NCBI GenBank assembly: GCA_012719135.1
Contig: JAAYAW010000085.1
Coordinates: 2,067-66,066 of the forward strand
Direction of reading: 5' to 3'
DNA length: 64,000 nucleotides
Source: Chloroflexota bacterium
GTDB taxonomy: Bacteria; Chloroflexota; Anaerolineae; UBA1429
The notes below the pieces were generated by a model. That model ran no database searches. It saw nothing but the letters and a program-made list of their open reading frames with translations, and had not been told where the DNA came from. Of the stretch, positions 14,939 to 25,458 are shown piece by piece. Both the position numbers and the translations under genes were made by a program. Every line of letters starts with the position of its first letter. The first letter of the stretch is position 1.

Positions 14939-16942
14939 TCAACGCAGTTGCAGGATGAGGACGTCCTTCGGCGCCAGCGTCAGCGTGCCCGCCATCTCGC
15001 GGCCGGAGAGAAGGTCCTGGGCAGGCGAGGGCATGGTGAGCTGGCACTCGGTGTCGAGGTGGTTCAACACGAGCGTGTAGGTCCGTCCGCCGGCGCTGCG
15101 CTGCGCGATCTCCACGCCCTCGCACGCCTCCAGCGGCGCCCGGATGCCCTTTTCATCGCACAGTGTGAGGACGAGATCGGTGAGTAAAGACTGCTCCATG
15201 TCACTGGCGACGTACAGGGCCCGCCCCTCTCCAAAGGTGTGGTCTGTGATGGCCGGGTACCCGGCGTAGAACTCGCCCGCGAATTGGGCACGGGCCACGG
15301 CTCCCTCGAGATGAAGCAGGTCACACAGCACGTGTGCAGAATAGGTGCCGCTGATTCGTCCCCAGCGCTCTGTCGAGACGGGAACGCCCTGTCCCTCCAG
15401 GAGCGCATCGTGCTCCTCCACCCAGATCCCCAGCACTTGGCGCAGACCGCCTGGATAGCCTTCTCCTGTCGCCAGGTCGTTCTCATCGACGATGCCGCTA
15501 AAGTGCCCGACGACCAGTGTCCCACCCTGCCGGACGTATTCGGTCAAGCGCTCGGCGACGCCGGGGCGGAGCATGTACAGCATCGGCGCTATGACGATGT
15601 CGTAGCTTTCCAGCGCTGAATCCGGGCTGACGACGTCGGTGGCGATGTTCGCGCTCCACAGGGCTCTGTAGTACTTTTTGCAGCTCGCGACATAGTCCAG
15701 ATCGCAGCTTGGCCGCACCGAGTAGTCGATCCCCCACCAGTTCTCCCAGTCAAACAGGACGGCACAGCGAGCGTTCTGCCGCGTGTCCACCAGCGCTTCT
15801 CCCAGGGACTCGAGCTCTGCACCCAGGCTGGCTACCTCCTGAAATACGCGTGTGCGCTCGTGGCCCACATGGTCGACGATCGCCCCGTGCATCTTCTCCG
15901 GCCCTCCACGAGCCCGTCGGAACTGGAAGAACATGACGGTGTCCGCACCGTGGGCCACGGCCTGGTAGCTCCAAAGCCGCATCACGCCTGGGCGCTTGAG
16001 TTGGTTTCTGGGCATCCAGTTCACCTGGCTTGGCGTCTGTTCCATCAGCATAAAGGGCTGCCCGCCCCGCAGCCCGCGCATCAACTCATGCTTGAAGGCG
16101 ACGCTGCTGGGGTGTTCGTCCGGGAAGGGGTAGCTGTCCCATGAGACGACATCGAGATAGGGCGCCCAGCTGTGGTAGTTGAGTGGCCTAAAGTGTCCCA
16201 TGAGGTTCGTGGTGATCGCCACATCCGGGCAGACGGACCTGATCGCGTCATACTCGTTTCGATAGCAGGCGAGCAGCGAGTCGTTCTGAAAGCGGTCATA
16301 GTCCAGGAGCATCGGCATGTTGTTACGCTCGCCGTTGGTCGTCGGCGTCTCGATCTCGGCCCATTGGGTTAGCCCATGGCTCCAAAAGTTGTTGTTCCAA
16401 GCGGCGTTGACGGCATCCAGCGATCCATACCTCGCCTTGAGCCAGTCACGAAAGGCCTCGGCACAGAGCTCACAGTAGCAGTGCGTACCGTACTCGTTAG
16501 CGATGTGCCAGGCGACGAGGGCGGAATGATCCTTGTAGCGTGTGGCCAGGCGCAGTGTTAGCTCGCGCGATAGCCGCCTGTAAGTCGGGCTGTTCGGGCA
16601 AAAGTTGGTACGCCCTCCGTGCTTGTGCCGGATGCCCTGTACGTCGGTGCGCAGGATGTCCGGATACCGCAGTGACATCCAGGCCGGTTGGGCGGCGGTC
16701 GAGGTCGCGATACACGCATAGACGCCGGCCGATGCGAGTTTGTCCAGGATTCGATCCAGCCAGGCAAAGTCGTACCGGTCCTCGACGGGTTGCAGCAGGG
16801 TCCAGCTGAACACTGGCAGGGTGACCACATCCACATGCGCGAGCTTCATCAGCTGCACGTCTTCGTCCCAGACTTCCTCGGGCCATTGGTCGGGGTTGTA
16901 GTCGGCGCCGTACCAGATCTTGTCGAGTTTGTGGCTGATCAT
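14939..16942 (-). CDS. beta-galactosidase, glycoside hydrolase family 42
   Basis: GH42 hallmarks (YGADYNPDQWPEEVW..., catalytic NEYG, C-terminal trimerisation/beta-sandwich domains). Start moved to the conserved MISHKLDKIWYGADYNP, M9 of the track ORF. Confidence 0.9.
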   Translation of the reverse strand: MISHKLDKIWYGADYNPDQWPEEVWDEDVQLMKLAHVDVVTLPVFSWTLLQPVEDRYDFAWLDRILDKLASAGVYACIATSTAAQPAWMSLRYPDILRTDVQGIRHKHGGRTNFCPNSPTYRRLSRELTLRLATRYKDHSALVAWHIANEYGTHCYCELCAEAFRDWLKARYGSLDAVNAAWNNNFWSHGLTQWAEIETPTTNGERNNMPMLLDYDRFQNDSLLACYRNEYDAIRSVCPDVAITTNLMGHFRPLNYHSWAPYLDVVSWDSYPFPDEHPSSVAFKHELMRGLRGGQPFMLMEQTPSQVNWMPRNQLKRPGVMRLWSYQAVAHGADTVMFFQFRRARGGPEKMHGAIVDHVGHERTRVFQEVASLGAELESLGEALVDTRQNARCAVLFDWENWWGIDYSVRPSCDLDYVASCKKYYRALWSANIATDVVSPDSALESYDIVIAPMLYMLRPGVAERLTEYVRQGGTLVVGHFSGIVDENDLATGEGYPGGLRQVLGIWVEEHDALLEGQGVPVSTERWGRISGTYSAHVLCDLLHLEGAVARAQFAGEFYAGYPAITDHTFGEGRALYVASDMEQSLLTDLVLTLCDEKGIRAPLEACEGVEIAQRSAGGRTYTLVLNHLDTECQLTMPSPAQDLLSGREMAGTLTLAPKDVLILQLR

Positions 16943-16987
16943 GTGGTCTCCCCCTTGCCTGCACAACGCCGGGTAACCCGCGCGTGG

Positions 16988-18322
16988 CTAGTGCCCGTCG
17001 TCCGTCTCCACATCGCCGATCATGGACCAGGGGCCCGTCCAGGTGATACGGACCCGCGCGAGGCGGCCCCTCCAGTCAGCTGGATCGTCAAAAAAGACGA
17101 GTTTGTTGCTGGCTGTTCGGCCGCGCCATCGGCCCCGCTGGCGATCCTCCACCAGGATCTCTACGGTCCTGCCCCGGAGGCGCGCATTGATTTCGCCGGT
17201 GATCTCGGTCTGCAGACTCTCCAGCGCGAGCCGTCGGCGTTCCTTTTCCTCTGGTGGCACGTCGTCCGGCCACGTCGCGGCCGCCGTTCCTGTGCGAACG
17301 GAATAGGCTGCGATGTGCACCTGGTCAAAACGGAGCTCCCGTGCGAGCTCCAGGGTTCTCTCGAACTGCTCCTCGGTCTCGCCGCAAAAACCTACGATGA
17401 TATCGGTGTTGATGGCTGCGCCGGGTATGGCGGCACGGATGCGGGCCACGACGTCTCGGTAGCGATCGATTGTGTACCCTCGCGCCATCCGCCGCAGCAC
17501 AGCGTCATCTCCCGCCTGTACCGGAAGCTCCCACGACGGGCAAACCTTGCCGAGCTGAGCGGCAGCGTCGATGATCCGCTGGCTCATCTCGCGAGGATGC
17601 GAGGTCAGGAAGCGCAATCGGAGCAGCCCGGGGATCTCATGCACGGCAGCAAGCACATCCGCGAGGTCCACACCGTCGTCCAGATCCGAACCGTAGGCGT
17701 CCACGTTCTGCCCAAGAAGGGTGATCTCTCGCGCTCCCCGTGAGACCAGATCCCGTGCTTCGGCAAGGATGTCGCTCAGCGGACGGCTTTGCTGTGGTCC
17801 GCGGCGTTCGGTGATGATGCAGTAGGTGCAGTGGTGGTCACAGCCATAGCTGATCGGCACCATCTCGCTCACCTGAACCGCCCGCAGAGGGCCCGATAGC
17901 TGTCCTTCCCCGTGCCGGCCATCCAGATAGGAGAGCAGGCCCTGGACGTCCGAGGGTGCAAAGAACCCGTCCACGTCACGAAAGCGAGCCGAGAGCTCGA
18001 CAGCATCGCCGACAATGCAACCCATGACGAGGAGTATCCGGCGGTGCTCCGGATCTCGAGCCAATGGCTCCAGCGATGATAGCCTCCCGACCACCTTGTC
18101 CTCGGCGCTCTGCCGGACGACGCAGGTGTTGAGGATCAGCACGTCGGCATCTTCCGGCCGGCGGGAAGCGGCGTAGCCCCGCGCCTCCAGCGCTTCTGCC
18201 AGACGCCGCGAGTCCGCTTGATTCATCTGGCAGCCGATGGTCCACAGATAGTACCGGCGCGCAGCATCCGTCGGTGGATCACCGGTGGTTGCGTCTGCAT
18301 CGATACCCGCACTAGGAGGCAT
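16988..18322 (-). CDS. miaB: tRNA-2-methylthio-N6-dimethylallyladenosine synthase
   Basis: MTTase N-terminal domain ([15 protein letters not shown]), radical [11 protein letters not shown] motif, C-terminal TRAM domain. Start taken at ATG 18322 (MPPSAGID), which overlaps the uvrA stop by 11 nt. Confidence 0.9.
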
Positions 18323-21242
18323 GGACCGATTCTCTGGTCGAATCTGGCTCCGAAACCGTCTCGGCGGGCGCCGTGCTCGACACACCCAGGAGCGGTCGCA
18401 GGAACTGACCTGTATAGGATTCGGCTACGCTGGCGACCTGCTCGGGCGTCCCCGTGGTAACGATCCGGCCGCCGGCATCGCCGCCATCGGGACCCAGATC
18501 GATGATCCAATCGGCGCTCTTGATCACATCCAGGTTGTGCTCAATGATGACGACGGTGTTTCCCGCATCGACGAGCCGCGAGAGCACCGTCAGAAGCCGG
18601 TCCACATCGGCCATGTGCAGGCCCACGGTTGGCTCATCGAGGATGTAAAAGGTCTGGCCCGTCGCGCGTCTGGCTAGCTCACGCGCCAGCTTGACGCGCT
18701 GAGCTTCGCCTCCGGACAGCGTTGTGGCTGGTTGGCCCAGTCGCACGTAGCCCAACCCGACCTCATGGAGCGTCTCCAGGCGGGGGCGGATGCGGGGCTG
18801 GTTCTCAAAGAATCCCAGCGCCTCGTCCACCGTCATATCCAGCGCGTCGGCGATGCTGGCACCCTTGTAGCGGATCTCTAGCGCCTCGCGGTTGTATCTC
18901 TTGCCATGGCAGACTTCGCATGGGACGTAGACGTCCGGCAGGAACTGCATCTCTATGCGGATGATCCCGGCCCCCTGGCACGCTTCACAGCGCCCGCCCC
19001 GTACGTTAAAGGAGAACCGTCCTGCCTTATAGCCACGGATCTTGGCCTCTGGCAGCGTGGCGTACAGTTCCCGCAGCGGACCAAAGATGCCTGTATAGGT
19101 CGCCGGATTGGACCGCGGCGTGCGCCCGATGGGCGATTGGTCGATATTGATGACTTTGTCGAGATACTCAAGCCCGAGCATCTCGTCGTGCTCAGCGGGA
19201 TGCTCCATCGCGCGATTCAGGTCGCGCGCCAGTCGCTTCTCGACGATCTCCATCAGCAGGCTGCTCTTGCCCGATCCGGAGACTCCGGTGATCGCTACAA
19301 GACGTCCGAGGGGGATCTCGGCGTCGATGTTCTTGAGGTTGTTGGCTCGCGCACCCACCACGCGCAGAACCTTGCCGTTACCGCTTCGGCGCCGGCGTGG
19401 CACGGGGACGGCCCGGGCGCCACTGATATACTGGCCGGTGGCCGACTCCTGGCAGGCGATGATGTCCTGCAGCGTGCCCTGAGCCGTGACATAGCCCCCG
19501 CGCTCACCGGCTCCCGGGCCCAGATCGACCACCCAATCCGCAGCACGGATGGTGGCCTCATCATGCTCTACCACGAGCACAGAATTGCCGAGGTCGCGCA
19601 GGCGGAGCAACGTATCGATCAGCTTCTCATTGTCTCTCTGATGCAGACCGATGCTGGGCTCATCGAGCACATAGAGTACACCGACGAGTTGCGAGCCGAT
19701 CTGGGTGGCGAGGCGGATGCGCTGTCCCTCCCCGCCCGATAGCGACGCTGCACCCCGGGCGAGCGTGAGATAATGCAGCCCGACGTCCTGCAGGAACCCG
19801 AGGCGAGACTCTAGCTCCTTGAGGATTTGGCGGGCGATCAGTTCATCGCGCTCGGAGAACTGGCCCGCCAGGGACTGGACAAAACCCATGCTCTGGCCGA
19901 TGGGCAACTGAGTGACCTCATAGATGTTCCGTCCACCCACGGTCACTGCCAGGCTCTCCGGCTTGAGCCGCTTGCCCTCACACGTGGGGCACGGCCGCTC
20001 CGTCATAAAGCTCTCGATCCAGCGTCTGATGCCGTCTGAACCGGTATCGTGATGCCGGCGCATCAGGTTGGGGATAACGCCTTCTACCGCCGAACGGTGT
20101 TGACGTTCCTCTCCCTGATGATTGACGTACCGCACGGTGACTGATTGCCCCCGGCTACCATATAGCACAGCGCGCCGGAACTCGGCTGGCAGCTGAGACC
20201 AGGGTGTATCCATTGATTGGCCATAGTGGTCGGCCACCGCCTGAAGCAAGCGGCGGTAGTACCCGTCGGCCTTGACAGCGGTGGCCCAGGGAGCGACGGC
20301 TCCGTCGTCTATCGAGAGCGAGTGGTCCGGCACGATCAGGGCGGGATCGATCTCGGCCTTGTATCCAAGGCCGGTGCAATCGGGACAGGCCCCATGGGGG
20401 CTGTTGAAGGAAAAGGTGCGCGGCTCGATCTCGGGCATCGTCGATCCGTGCTCGGGGCAGGCATAGTTCTGCGAGAACAGGATCTCCTCGCCCTCTACGA
20501 TTACCACGCGAAGCACGCCGTCGCCGAGTTCGAGTGACGTCTCCACCGAGTCGTTCAAACGGGCCCGATCGGAATCGGCGGCGTCATCGTCTCCCGCGGC
20601 GTATCTCCGGATCACCAGGCGATCCACTACGACCTCGATGGTGTGCATCTTGTACCGGTCCAGCACGATCTCGTGGTCCAGTTCGATGATCTCGCCGTTG
20701 ATACGGGCGCGCACGTACCCGGCCTTGACGAGGTCGTCCAGCAGCCGTTTGTGCTCCCCTTTTCGGTCCTTGATCATCGGCGCGAGCAGCATGATGCGCG
20801 TGCCATCGGGAAGCGAGCGGATCTCGTCCACGATCTGTTGTACCGTCTGGCGGGTGATCTCTCGCCCGCAGATGGGGCAGTGCGGGGTGCCCACGCGGGC
20901 GTAGAGGAGCCGGAGATAATCATAGATCTCGGTCACCGTGCCCACGGTGGAACGCGGGCTCCGGCTCGTGCTTCGCTGGTCGATGCTAATGGCTGGCGAC
21001 AAGCCCTCGATATGGTCCAGGTCGGGCTTGTCCATGCGCCCCAGGAACTGCCGCGCGTAGGCCGAAAGCGACTCTACATACCGGCGCTGCCCTTCGGCGT
21101 AGATGGTGTCGAACGCCAGGGAGGACTTGCCCGAACCTGAAAGCCCGGTGATCACCACGAGCTTGTCCCGGGGGATGTCGATATCGATGTTCTTGAGGTT
21201 GTGCTCGCGGGCACCACGAATACGGATGTCGTTATGTAGCAT
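18312..21242 (-). CDS. uvrA: excinuclease ABC subunit A
   Basis: About 976 aa; two ABC ATPase modules ([18 protein letters not shown]), Zn-finger cysteines, signature LSGGE motifs. Start at the conserved [21 protein letters not shown]; the track ORF extends 98 codons upstream. Confidence 0.95.
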
Positions 21243-21275
21243 GCCTGCTCCTGCAGAACCTGAGTGCGAAACCCG

Positions 21276-21304
21276 ATTATAGCCCAGTCCCCGCTCTCTC
21301 TCAA
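21276..21304 (-). promoter_or_regulatory. putative promoter TTGAGA-17-TATAAT (minus strand) upstream of uvrA
   Basis: Minus strand reads TTGAGAgagagcggggactgggcTATAATcggg...gcAGGAGcaggcATG. Near-consensus spacing, and the AGGAG RBS lies in front of the uvrA ATG. Confidence 0.55.
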
Positions 21305-21343
21305 CCGGAGGCGTGCCGCTGAGGCTGGATCGACACGCACATC

Positions 21344-22291
21344 CTAGTAGACGCGATCGAGTTCCTGGCGCCAGCCGTGCTCCAGCCCCAGGGCGTCGGC
21401 CGCATCCAGGACACGAGCATACTCCCGGTGGTACAGGCGCCGGCCCAGTACAGGGTGATCCACGACCTGGTGCGCGGGGAAATACTGGGACATGAGACTG
21501 ACGTGGATCCGTGGAGTCAGAGCCTGCGCAATCCACTTGAGCACCTCGATGCTCTGGGATAGCTCCCCAGGCAACACAAGGTGGCGGACAATCATCCCGC
21601 GCCTGGCGATCCCGGCCTCATCCACGAGCAACTCTGTGCCGACCTGGCGCCTTATCTCCAGCAACGCTGCCCGGTTGGCCTCCACGTATCCCACGAACCC
21701 CGAAAGCTCCAGTGCAACAGAGTCATCCGCGTACTTGGCATCGGGAAGATAGATGTCGACGATCCCGTCCAGCAAGGAGAGAGCCTCGAGGCTGTCATAC
21801 CCGCTGGTGTTGTACAGGATCGGGATGTGCAAGCCCTGCGGGAGGGCGAGCGAGACGGCCTCGATGATGCTCGGCACATAGTGTGTAGGCGTGACCAAGT
21901 TGATGTTGTGGCACCCCTTGCGCTGCAGGGCCAGCATCGCCTCGGCCAGGCGCCCCGTGCTCCATTCGTTACCTGTGCCCAGCTGGCTGATGGGATAGTT
22001 CTGGCAGAACAGGCAAGCCCCGGTGCAGAAGGAGAAGAACACGGTGCCGGATCCGCGCGTTCCACTGATGGGCGGCTCCTCCCAGTGGTGCGGACCATGG
22101 CTGGCTACTCGCGGAGTGGCCCCCGCACCGCAAAAGCCAAGCTCACCGGCCAGCCTGTTTACGCCGCAGCGCCTCGGGCACAGCACGCACGCCTCCAGGA
22201 GCGCTCGTGCCCGTTCCACGCGGCGTCCGAGTTCGTCGGCCCCCAGCGATACGTAGGCAGGAGGAGCATCCAGGCTGGAGAGAGGATCCAT
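21344..22291 (-). CDS. radical SAM protein, PflX/COG1313-like (pyruvate formate-lyase activase homologue of unknown function)
   Basis: CX3CX2C radical-SAM motif ([13 protein letters not shown]) plus an N-terminal CxxCPRRCxVNR...GFCG auxiliary Cys motif characteristic of the PflX family. Lies between uvrB and uvrA. Start at ATG 22291 (MDPLSSL) to avoid a 40-nt overlap with uvrB; the alternative is GTG 22336. Confidence 0.75.
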
Positions 22292-22296
22292 ACGGG

Positions 22297-24318
22297 CTAC
22301 CGCCGCTTTCGATCCATCTCGCGGTATCGTTCCCACTCTGGCCGCTCGTCCTGCGCCTGCAAGTCGCGCTGCAGCCCGAGAATCTGATCGCGCAGGAGCG
22401 CGGCCTTCTCAAACTCCAGATTCCTTGCAGCCGTCTTCATCTCCTCTTCCAGCACGCTGATCAGGTGCTGTGCTTCGTCTTCTGGCATCGACGCACCAGC
22501 CTGCCGCTTCTCCTCCGGCTCTGTGTGCAGCGAGTTTGTCAGCGAGTAGATCTCTTTAATAATGCTGGCTGGTGTGATGCTGTGGGCAAGGTTATATTCT
22601 TCCTGGATCGATCTTCGTCGATTCGTTTCTTCGATCGCCCTCCGCATCGAGTCCGTGATGGTATCCGCGTACATCACCACGCGACCGTTCACGTTTCGGG
22701 CAGCTCGCCCGATCGTCTGGATGAGCGAGTTGTCCGACCTCAGGAAGCCTTCCTTGTCGGCATCCAGGACGGCGACCAGCGAGACCTCCGGCAGGTCCAG
22801 CCCTTCACGCAGCAGGTTCACCCCGACAACGACGTCGTATACCCCGCCTCGCAGATCGCGCAGGATGTCCACGCGCTCGATGGTGGACACCTCCGAGTGC
22901 AGATAGTGCACGCTGAACCCCGCCTCGGCCAGATAGTCGGAGAGGTCCTCTGCCATGCGCTTGGTCAGCGTGGTTACCAGGGCGCGCTCTCCGCGCTGCG
23001 TAACGGCCCTCAACTCGCGGATCAGGTCGTCGATCTGTCCCTCGATCGGCCGGACCACCACGTCAGGGTCCACCAGGCCCGTCGGCCGGATGACCTGCTC
23101 AACGACGCGCGCACTCACCTGCCCCTCATACTCGCGCGGCGTAGCCGAGACAAAGATGCATTGGTTGACGTGATCCTCGAACTCTTCAAACGTGAGGGGC
23201 CGGTTGTCCATGGCCGAAGGCAGCCGGAAGCCAAAGTCCACGAGCACCTGCTTGCGGGCCCGGTCGCCGTTGTACATCCCCCGCACCTGAGGCACCGTCA
23301 TGTGTGATTCGTCGATGAACATCAGGTAGTCTGCGGGGAAATAGTCCAGCAGTGTCCAGGGGGGCTCCCCAGGCTGACGCTGCGACAGATGCCGCGAATA
23401 GTTCTCGATGCCCGAGCAGTAGCCCATCTCGCGCAACATCTCGAGATCGTAACGGGTGCGCTGTTCCAGGCGCTGGGCCTCCAGCAGCAACTCCTGGCTC
23501 CTCAGATGGGCCAGCTGAGCTTCCAGCTCGCCCTCAATCGCTTCCAGCGCAGTCCCGAGCCGGTCCTGAGGCGTCACAAAGTGCTTGGCCGGGAAGATGC
23601 TCAGCGTGCTGTGCTCGCGGAGCAACTCCCCTGTGAGAGCATCAACCTCGGCCATCCGATCGACCGTATCCCCCCAGAATTCGATCCGGTACACCGTATC
23701 GCCATAGGCAGGCATGACTTCGACCGTATCGCCGCGCACGCGGAACCGGCCGGGGGCCAGCGACGCATCGTTCCTGTCGTAAAAGATGGCGACCAGGTGC
23801 CTGAGCAGCCGGTTCCGCTGTATCACCTCACCCCGCGCCATCTGGATCACCGCCTGCCCGTACTCGTCCGGATCCCCCAGGCCGTATATGCACGATACCG
23901 AGGCCACGATGATCACGTCGCGCCGGCTAAAGAGAGCGGAGGTCGCTGCCAGACGCATCCGCTCGATCTCTTCGTTGATCTGCGCATCCTTCTCGATATA
24001 CGTGTCTGTGCGCGGGATGTAGGCCTCGGGCTGGTAATAGTCATAGTAGCTGACAAAGTAGGCGACAGCGTTCTCCGGGAAGAACTCGCGGAACTCTGAA
24101 TAGAGCTGTGCCGCGAGTGTCTTGTTGTGGGCGATCACGAGGGTTGGACGCTGGACCGCCTGAATGATGTTGGCCATCACAAAGGTCTTTCCGGAACCGG
24201 TCACGCCCTTGAGGGTCTGATATCGGTCGGAGGCCTCGATGCCGCGGACCAGCGCGGAGATCGCCTCTGGCTGGTCACCAGTTGGCCGAAAGTCGCTTAC
24301 TAGCTGGAACTCTGGCAT
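22297..24318 (-). CDS. uvrB: excinuclease ABC subunit B
   Basis: 673 aa; helicase motifs ([12 protein letters not shown]), beta-hairpin region, C-terminal UvrC-interaction coiled coil ([11 protein letters not shown]). Confidence 0.95.
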
Positions 24319-24414
24319 GGACGTCCCACCTCCATGGCGTACGCGGTGCGGTGGAAGATGTTAGCACATCCGTTCGCATTCCTGCAAACTCGCTCTTCCC
24401 TGTGGGCTTATGCC

Positions 24415-25458
24415 TCAGGAGGCGGGGGTACGGGCCAGCAGCGAGCCAAAACCTGAAGGGCGCTCCTGCACACCGGACTGTTCACGGAGGGGGATCAGCG
24501 ACAGGGCCCCGGAGGGACAGGTGGAAACGCACAGGCCGCAGCCCACGCAATGGCGCTCGTCCACCCGGGCGGGCCCAGCCTCGACTGCGATGGCGCCCAC
24601 GTGGCATCGGGTGACGCAACGCCCGCACTGCACACAGGCCTCTGCGTCTACTCGGGCGACGTACTGGCTGGAGGCGATCACCCGCTCTTTACCGTGTGCG
24701 GTCATGGCGCGAAGAAAGACGCAGCAGCATGGGCAGCAGTTGCAGATGACCCGCGGATGGGTGCTGTTTTCGGTGAGGTGCATGAGGCCGAGCGCCTCGC
24801 TGTGTTCCAGAATGCCCAGAGCCTCCTCCGCTGTGATCTCCCGCCCGATCTCCCGGGCGATCATGTACTCCGCCACCTCATTGAGGCCCAGGCAAGTCTC
24901 GGTTGGGTTACCGCACAGGCGCTCTCTGGTACGGCAGGGGCAATGCTCCACCGACAGGCGCTGGGCCTGCCTGATCTCGTCGACGATGCGCTCGTATGGC
25001 AGGGCCGTGCGCTGATCGGTGACCTGCTCCAGAACCGGGACGACGCGGAAGGGCCGTTGATCCCGCTCGGGATAGTCGTGCTCATGCACCAGCTCCTGGT
25101 TGTAGAACCGCTGCCAGGTATCCAGGAACACGTGACCGTACTCGAGATATCGCCGGTCAAAGAGAACCAGATCCATCAAAACGCCGGCATTCTCGATCGG
25201 CAGGTAGCGCGGATCCGGCCCTACCTCCGGATCGATCACGACGAGCCCACGCGAGTAGAGCGCCTCCAGGCCCTTGCGGACCTCGGCAACCGGTTCCCCC
25301 GTGGATGCAGAAAGGCCGGCGGCCGTTGCTGGCAGCGCGGCGATCCACGTCGCCTCGCGCTCGTCGACCATCGTGTCCCACAGCGATAGCAGAGCCTCGG
25401 AGCCCGGGTAACCGAGCCGGGCCACGATACCTGTTAGTGCGCGGCGCTTGGCGTCCAC
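24415..25458 (-). CDS. Cys-rich 4Fe-4S dicluster domain-containing protein (function unknown)
   Basis: 347 aa; two ferredoxin-type CxxCxxCxxxC(P) motifs (CVQCGRCVTRC; CVGCGLCVSTCP) plus an unusual CNCCPCCC cluster and a CPCRTRERLCG segment. Confidence 0.6.
   Translation of the reverse strand: MDAKRRALTGIVARLGYPGSEALLSLWDTMVDEREATWIAALPATAAGLSASTGEPVAEVRKGLEALYSRGLVVIDPEVGPDPRYLPIENAGVLMDLVLFDRRYLEYGHVFLDTWQRFYNQELVHEHDYPERDQRPFRVVPVLEQVTDQRTALPYERIVDEIRQAQRLSVEHCPCRTRERLCGNPTETCLGLNEVAEYMIAREIGREITAEEALGILEHSEALGLMHLTENSTHPRVICNCCPCCCVFLRAMTAHGKERVIASSQYVARVDAEACVQCGRCVTRCHVGAIAVEAGPARVDERHCVGCGLCVSTCPSGALSLIPLREQSGVQERPSGFGSLLARTPAS

Follow-up and report, generated by a model that had tools for sequence, protein, structure and literature searches.

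A PflX-type radical SAM gene between uvrB and uvrA: a clade-restricted arrangement in Chloroflexota around an orphan enzyme family

Why should a radical S-adenosylmethionine (SAM) gene sit between uvrB and uvrA, two genes of nucleotide excision repair (NER)? The question is raised by a stretch of 64,000 nucleotides from a Chloroflexota bacterium (GenBank assembly GCA_012719135.1, contig JAAYAW010000085.1, positions 2,067 to 66,066; hereafter the window), in which an original prediction, made from the letters alone, had placed a PflX-type radical SAM gene (here rSAM) between uvrB and uvrA with miaB next in line, and had proposed that co-transcription with NER points to a radical reaction on a DNA or nucleotide lesion. 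All four genes lie where they were predicted (Table 1). We conclude that the arrangement is a clade-restricted operon around an already catalogued orphan family and is not evidence for new repair chemistry. The reading that we favour, with some confidence, is that rSAM is a housekeeping, activase-like radical SAM enzyme encoded in a uvrB-rSAM unit, dependent on the uvrB promoter and not specific to NER.

Conservation of the uvrB-rSAM pair

Evaluating gene neighbourhoods of the family, as the original prediction had proposed, revealed that the adjacency is not unique to this genome and so is not coincidence: uvrB followed by rSAM recurs in 33-34 other related loci whose flanks are otherwise different. 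Across four long contigs with homologues at 62-71% identity, uvrB lies upstream on the same strand in every one, and the outer flanks are unrelated. Locus L001 repeats the full order of the window (aconitase/isocitrate dehydrogenase, uvrB-rSAM-uvrA-miaB-GH42, der-ybbR), whereas L003, L005 and L006 retain only uvrB and rSAM, which in L006 are separated by a 249-aa open reading frame (ORF) and a gene for an RlmI-type methyltransferase.

A scan of GTDB genomes, one for each species, with an alignment of the family gave 80 loci from about 25 phyla, in which uvr neighbours were sought by tblastn with the UvrB, UvrA and MiaB proteins of the window. Among the assessable Chloroflexota of this species-level set, 5 of 15 carry uvrB upstream: directly so in L007 and L010 (both Anaerolineae), with a gene for a nuclease-related domain (NERD) protein in between in L009 (a metagenome-assembled genome (MAG) named 'Chloroflexia'), with one 240-aa ORF in between in L014 (Ktedonobacterales), and at a distance of 5.6 kb in L021 (Dictyobacter). 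A further locus, L027, is cut at its 5' end and has uvrA downstream. No uvr neighbour was found in any of the 55 assessable species of other phyla, and no uvr linkage in the eight Dehalococcoidia loci. The intervening gene of L009 encodes a 411-aa protein, and its stop codon overlaps the PflX start.

A metagenome scan with an alignment of close relatives added 80 further loci. Where identity was at least 57% and at least 500 nt of upstream sequence were available, uvrB lay upstream in 25 loci and not in 20; it lay upstream in none of 25 more distant metagenome loci. The whole uvrB-rSAM-uvrA-miaB block recurs in L001, L087, L089 and L105, and parts of it in L027, L106, L112 and L132. In at least six loci uvr genes have miaB in their vicinity, and the miaB of L006 is oriented divergently to uvrB.

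On a neighbour-joining tree of the clade, drawn without bootstrap, uvrB linkage falls on both basal and derived branches, and the state with uvrA downstream is scattered. Because linkage occupies basal as well as derived branches, the tree places the origin of the uvrB-rSAM pairing at the base of an Anaerolineae-type Chloroflexota clade, within which it would have been lost at least five separate times.

Transcription units and a LexA-like box

The spacing of the genes, given by the original prediction as gaps of 5 and about 100 nt and an 11-nt overlap between uvrA and miaB, is borne out: the ATG of rSAM lies 5 nt past the TAG of uvrB, the rSAM-uvrA spacer is 101 nt, and the ATG of miaB at 18322 gives the overlap. 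The uvrB-rSAM gap of the window contains neither a strong Shine-Dalgarno sequence nor a promoter for rSAM, and no terminator-like site lies between the two genes there. Elsewhere, 21 of the 33 linked loci have no more than 30 nt between the end of uvrB and the beginning of rSAM, and seven of these 21 show a 4-nt ATGA overlap. A gap too short for a promoter or terminator, together with the lack of a clear rSAM Shine-Dalgarno, fits translational coupling to uvrB, and we infer that rSAM is so coupled and that, lacking a promoter of its own, it stands second in a uvrB-rSAM unit in this genome. The same spacing bears on the idea that the adjacency is a pure positional accident and rSAM an independent transcript. 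Although a strong promoter does lie inside the block, ahead of uvrA, and the neighbours of the family as a whole are nearly random in composition, gaps of this size leave no space for a promoter or terminator between uvrB and rSAM, and the pair recurs amid different flanks; we consider an accident extremely unlikely.

The promoter inside the block is the TTGAGA-17-TATAAT site that had been predicted before uvrA, and it proved to be the highest-scoring promoter-like site in the 11.5 kb scanned. Every one of the nine loci with uvrA downstream (the window, L001, L027, L087, L089, L105, L106, L112 and L132) has a -10 element (TATAAT or TATACT) about 35-45 nt ahead of the uvrA start codon, and this element is retained even in L089 and L106, where an extra gene separates rSAM from uvrA. 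In L001, L087, L105 and L132 a -35 element can be read by eye as well, again with a spacing of 17 nt. The conserved -10 in these spacers suggests that uvrA, with miaB, has its own promoter of sigma-70 type, and a promoter at this place makes the block two probable transcription units, uvrB-rSAM and uvrA-miaB, such that co-transcription of uvrA with the first pair does not appear to be a necessity. The predicted co-directional block thus stands as far as strand goes, all four genes being on the minus strand, but probably divides at the uvrA promoter. Co-transcription with NER genes is supported on the uvrB side, where coupling is tight and a LexA-type box occurs in part of the clade, and not for uvrA.

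This box, GAACGGATGTGC, overlaps a -10-like TAACAT upstream of uvrB. Its pattern, GAAC-N4-GTGC, was found only twice in the window, at uvrB and just before uvrA. Of the 23 related loci with complete upstream sequence, 8 have such a box, with TAT(G/A)AT after it, 53-66 nt ahead of uvrB, and in five of these eight its core is identical, GAACAGATGTGC; counting the window, 9 of 24 loci carry a LexA-like box of the form GAAC-N4-GT(G/A)C at the uvrB -10. In Firmicutes and Actinobacteria the LexA motif is GAAC-N4-GTTC, and variants have been reported from Chloroflexi (PMC4951493). The second half-site of the uvrB box deviates from that motif, reading GTGC and not GTTC. The box probably serves this Chloroflexota lineage as its LexA operator, and in part of the clade uvrB-rSAM would then be an operon under LexA control. 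LexA is known to control uvrBA operons in Bacillus subtilis and other Gram-positive bacteria. The window shares with these operons the same-strand order, with uvrB ahead of uvrA, and a GAAC-N4-GTTC-type box at the uvrB promoter, but differs in having an unrelated radical SAM gene after uvrB, a separate, conserved uvrA promoter and an appended miaB. The box before uvrA is not conserved across orthologous rSAM-uvrA spacers and is weaker evidence than the one at uvrB, and for this reason we do not claim LexA regulation of uvrA.

Table 1. Coordinates of the features discussed; positions refer to the window unless another locus is named.
Feature	Position	Strand	Description
uvrB	24318..22297	-	673 aa; first cistron of the probable uvrB-rSAM unit; NF003673 1058.8 bits (cut-off 743), TIGR00631 1039.3 bits
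rSAM (PflX/COG1313-type)	22291..21344	-	315 aa; stop codon 21346-21344
uvrA	21242..18312	-	976 aa; first cistron of the probable uvrA-miaB unit; NF001503 1508.9 bits
miaB	18322..16988	-	444 aa; 11-nt overlap with uvrA; TIGR01574 361.8 bits (cut-off 355.3)
uvrA promoter	21304..21276	-	TTGAGA-17-TATAAT, 11/12
Probable uvrB operator and -10	24375..24358	-	GAACGGATGTGC (24375..24364), then directly TAACAT
Second GAAC-N4-GTGC site	21256..21267	+	between the uvrA -10 element and the uvrA ATG
Ferredoxin-domain gene	24415-25458	-	347 aa; just upstream of uvrB
Region syntenic with L001	12246-28644		Anaerolineae contig at 71% identity
uvrB box, L001	5915		
uvrB box, L003	5969		
uvrB box, L005	~5906		
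uvrB box, L007	~1227		
uvrB box, L087, L089, L103, L105			
NERD gene, L009	8763-9998		411 aa
carA-PflX-carB, L011	8738-14468		
carA-PflX-carB, L019, L044, L140, L142, L146, L147, L148, L156, L162, L164, L165			
HAD_2-PflX-EamA, L012	1014-3638		
HAD_2-PflX-EamA, L144, L150-L154, L158, L159, L163, L166			
RluA::RlmI fusion gene, L137	181-2058		625 aa; also partial ORFs in L115 and L120

The other genes of the block are unexceptional. UvrB, UvrA and MiaB all pass equivalog-level NCBIfam models; UvrB shows all of its Pfam domains (UvrB_inter, UvrB, Helicase_C, UVR), UvrA carries UvrA_DNA-bind and UvrA_inter and has an AGGAG Shine-Dalgarno ahead of its ATG, and MiaB carries UPF0004, Radical_SAM and TRAM. 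Past miaB the next gene encodes a GH42 beta-galactosidase. Just upstream of uvrB lies a gene whose product bears a 2x[4Fe-4S] ferredoxin domain at its C-terminus; the gene is missing from the otherwise syntenic L001, where aconitase directly adjoins uvrB; the order shared by the window and L001 runs ybbR-der, GH42-miaB-uvrA-rSAM-uvrB, aconitase-isocitrate/isopropylmalate dehydrogenase. GC content of the window is 62-68%, and we regard the long plus-strand ORFs (such as 16688-17743 and 22207-23307) as antisense shadows of minus-strand genes in DNA of 63% GC. A terminator-like hairpin at 22058..22039 is weak and lies within the rSAM coding sequence, and was not taken as functional. An Rfam scan of the whole window returned no RNA family.

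The radical SAM protein and its relatives

The rSAM protein, one residue shorter than the 316 aa first given, is identical to NLT74627.1, named 'MAG: radical SAM protein [Chloroflexi bacterium]'. The only Pfam model that it passes is PF04055 (Radical_SAM), at 32.2 bits against a cut-off of 29.5, and no NCBIfam family passes at the default threshold. Those NCBIfam models that match at E<=10 are all of activase type and far below threshold, with NrdG2 at 14.8 bits (cut-off 131), the trans-4-hydroxyproline dehydratase activase at 12.2 bits (cut-off 425) and the AmmeMemoRadiSam enzyme model likewise sub-threshold. Among the PADLOC defence models, which include prokaryotic viperins and others, no family matched. 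Names given to relatives vary: homologues at 62-78% identity are called 'putative pyruvate formate lyase activating enzyme' by JGI, and a cluster at 47% identity is an 'uncharacterized Fe-S radical SAM superfamily protein PflX'.

Both cysteine motifs that had been predicted are present and hold across 45 close and 43 distant homologues. The cluster motif, C89-x3-C93-x2-C96, is conserved in all alignments; such a CX3CX2C triad is the usual ligand set of the [4Fe-4S] cluster at which SAM is split to yield the 5'-deoxyadenosyl radical. The N-terminal motif reads C35VLC38PRRC42GVNR...C54, its four cysteines C35, C38, C42 and C54 are invariant in the homologue alignment, and R46, H68, E71 and E72 are, with the cysteine motifs, invariant or nearly so. 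The family is large, with more than 8000 word-index matches and 6133 clusters (at 50% identity) found at E<=1e-3, of which 1174 reach 1e-30. Full-length homology to PflX/COG1313 and the shared, invariant CxxCPRxC...C and CX3CX2C motifs mark rSAM, as far as its sequence can tell, as a bona fide member of this large, uncharacterised radical SAM family, from which it shows no difference at the protein level; its only peculiarity is the clade-specific position behind uvrB. Full-text literature searches returned no paper on the PflX/COG1313/MJ0674 radical SAM family and nothing relevant on radical SAM genes in the uvrB neighbourhood, in agreement with the earlier statement that PflX proteins have no assigned function.

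An AlphaFold2 model built from a 45-sequence alignment was confident (mean predicted local distance difference test, pLDDT, 91.6; predicted template modelling score, pTM, 0.92). Foldseek against the PDB put the pyruvate formate lyase activating enzyme (PFL-AE) of E. coli on top (E 4e-10 to 1e-9), followed at 1e-5 or weaker by SkfB, viperin-like enzymes, MiaB, LipA, QueE and HydE, and the family profile run against all PDB sequences matched PFL-AE alone, weakly (E 4e-4). The model thus presents rSAM as a compact, PFL-activase-like core with a family-specific N-terminal extension, and the four cysteines of this extension probably form a second Fe-S or Zn site. Spore photoproduct lyase (SPL, SplB; PDB 4fhc), which the original prediction had offered as an analogy, shares with rSAM its membership of the radical SAM enzymes, and the rSAM gene does adjoin DNA-repair genes; the analogy fell away in the searches, which returned no specific similarity of rSAM to SPL in sequence or structure and, in NCBIfam at E<=10, no match to SPL or other DNA-repair radical SAM models. 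Inteins sit beside the CX3CX2C region of two PflX proteins, P0232 (517 aa) and P0238 (787 aa); the latter is from Thermoflexus sp., has 23 cluster members, and its intein contains a LAGLIDADG homing endonuclease.

The fold, like the database name 'putative pyruvate formate lyase activating enzyme', invites the view that rSAM is a true glycyl-radical-enzyme activase that installs a glycyl radical on a partner enzyme encoded elsewhere, since PFL-AE is the best structural match by a clear margin and the sub-threshold NCBIfam matches are without exception of activase type. Against this, rSAM scores far under the family cut-offs and fails all curated activase models, its identity to PFL-AE (PflA; PDB 3c8f, 3cb8, 8fo0) is just 14-15%, and the N-terminal extension of about 60-85 residues with its four invariant cysteines is foreign to PFL-AE. 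A survey that clustered all ORFs within 3.5 kb of rSAM in 164 loci, with Pfam annotation of representatives, found no glycyl-radical enzyme family among the recurrent neighbour clusters, nor was one among the 25 commonest adjacent Pfam families of the 80 species, though single cases are possible. In addition, the family is present in Ktedonobacteria (L014, L021), aerobes in which glycyl radicals would be oxygen-labile. We therefore hold a true activase to be very unlikely.

Gene contexts elsewhere and the role of the protein

Beyond uvrB, the neighbour survey revealed three recurrent settings. The first, (pyrB-)pyrC-carA-rSAM-carB, occurs in 12 loci of a Geobacter/Nitrospirota group and related contigs, and in both trees this carAB-linked group, whose proteins are 52-58% identical to rSAM, branches as sister to the clade with uvrB linkage. 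Its orthologue likewise stands between two subunit genes on the same strand with short gaps, but the host operon supplies the carbamoyl phosphate from which pyrimidines and arginine are made and does not serve DNA repair. In carA/carB, as in uvrB/uvrA, PflX is wedged between two subunit genes of one complex. The second setting, of Atribacterota type, is HAD_2 hydrolase-rSAM-EamA transporter in 11 loci; a HAD_2::PflX fusion (P0192, 512 aa, a metagenome protein) was left out of account as a singleton on one 7.9-kb contig that may be a frameshift or gene-calling artefact, given that the HAD and rSAM genes of Atribacterota overlap. In the third, an RlmI-type PUA/SAM methyltransferase gene lies upstream of rSAM in 7 loci from three lineages, in some of them as part of a fusion. 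The fusion of an RluA-type pseudouridine synthase to an RlmI-type methyltransferase listed in Table 1 lies upstream of PflX, immediately so in L115, on several Anaerolineae-type contigs that have lost the uvrB linkage, whereas L006 and L046 (Eisenbacteria) have an RlmI-type gene without the fusion ahead of PflX. A 696-aa 'rSAM' ORF in L115 is not such a fusion; it is an out-of-frame upstream extension in high-GC DNA.

No partner is common to the whole family: in the 80 species-level loci the same-strand ORFs directly next to rSAM, 102 in all, match 175 Pfam families, none of them more than 4 times, a count reached by DEAD/Helicase_C (half of them UvrB) and by Metallophos. The carAB-operon orthologues and the mostly unrelated neighbours make a function specific to NER unlikely.

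How much then remains of the lesion hypothesis? Its premise, the pairing, is real, and the hypothesis could take the form of an SOS-regulon DNA-damage enzyme that works alongside UvrB by radical chemistry on a DNA lesion or damaged nucleotide, for instance a pyrimidine adduct that arises where oxygen or light-dependent repair is lacking. The tight coupling of the conserved pair speaks for it, as do the LexA-type box over the uvrB -10, the NERD gene between uvrB and rSAM in L009, and other contexts that concern pyrimidine nucleotides (carA/carB, pyrC, pyrB) or pyrimidine modification in RNA (RluA::RlmI). It is opposed by the confinement of the linkage to one Chloroflexota clade, with no uvr or other repair neighbour in the 55 species of other phyla or the eight Dehalococcoidia loci, by the repeated losses inside the clade, by orthologues at 55-58% identity within a carAB operon, and by the failure of DNA-repair radical SAM models to match. 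On balance such an SOS enzyme seems unlikely, and the uvrB-side position of rSAM is a weak hint of a role in DNA repair.

The pattern of breakage speaks for the reading that we favour, a housekeeping enzyme that relies on the uvrB promoter. An ancestral uvrB-rSAM-uvrA-miaB row would have broken often at the promoter-bearing rSAM|uvrA junction and less often at uvrB|rSAM, and the best account of why the pair has persisted is that rSAM relies on the uvrB promoter, not that the two share a biochemical task. Under this scheme transcription of rSAM would start from a promoter with a LexA-type box over its -10, and the gene would simply be co-expressed with uvrB in this lineage, possibly in a damage-inducible way; judged from fold and context, the substrate would most probably be a macromolecule (RNA or protein) or a nucleotide; the C89/C93/C96 cluster would cleave SAM reductively, hydrogen would be abstracted from a substrate in an open, PFL-AE-like barrel, and the N-terminal Cys4 site would serve as a second metal centre.

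Several points weigh against this housekeeping reading. Retention of the pair through about 60-78% protein identity amid reshuffled flanks is also what selection for co-regulation would produce, and the LexA-like box probably makes rSAM damage-inducible in part of the clade. Furthermore, uvrB, carAB/pyrBC, RluA::RlmI, miaB, the HAD phosphatase and the NERD gene all touch nucleic acids or pyrimidine nucleotides. A DNA-lesion role for rSAM is therefore possible but improbable; the nucleic-acid and pyrimidine contexts would add weight to it, and the results hold no direct pointer to it. An equally improbable, more specific proposal is that PflX acts on pyrimidines that are damaged or non-canonical, whether these lie in DNA or among the free nucleotides, and that in Anaerolineae-type Chloroflexota it was recruited to a LexA-controlled uvrB operon for oxygen- and light-independent repair or sanitising. 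Were this true, one pyrimidine chemistry would explain the uvrB, carA-pflX-carB/pyrBC, HAD-type phosphatase and RluA::RlmI contexts as well as the viperin-like fold matches.

As the contexts disagree, the finding is an experimental lead and not a functional assignment. Among radical SAM families still lacking a function, PflX/COG1313 ranks with the larger ones and spans many bacterial phyla, and the conserved, probably damage-inducible uvrB-pflX operon offers one condition (DNA damage) and one lineage in which a phenotype may be sought. The carA-pflX-carB arrangement of Geobacter-type organisms, some of which are genetically tractable, provides a second lead.

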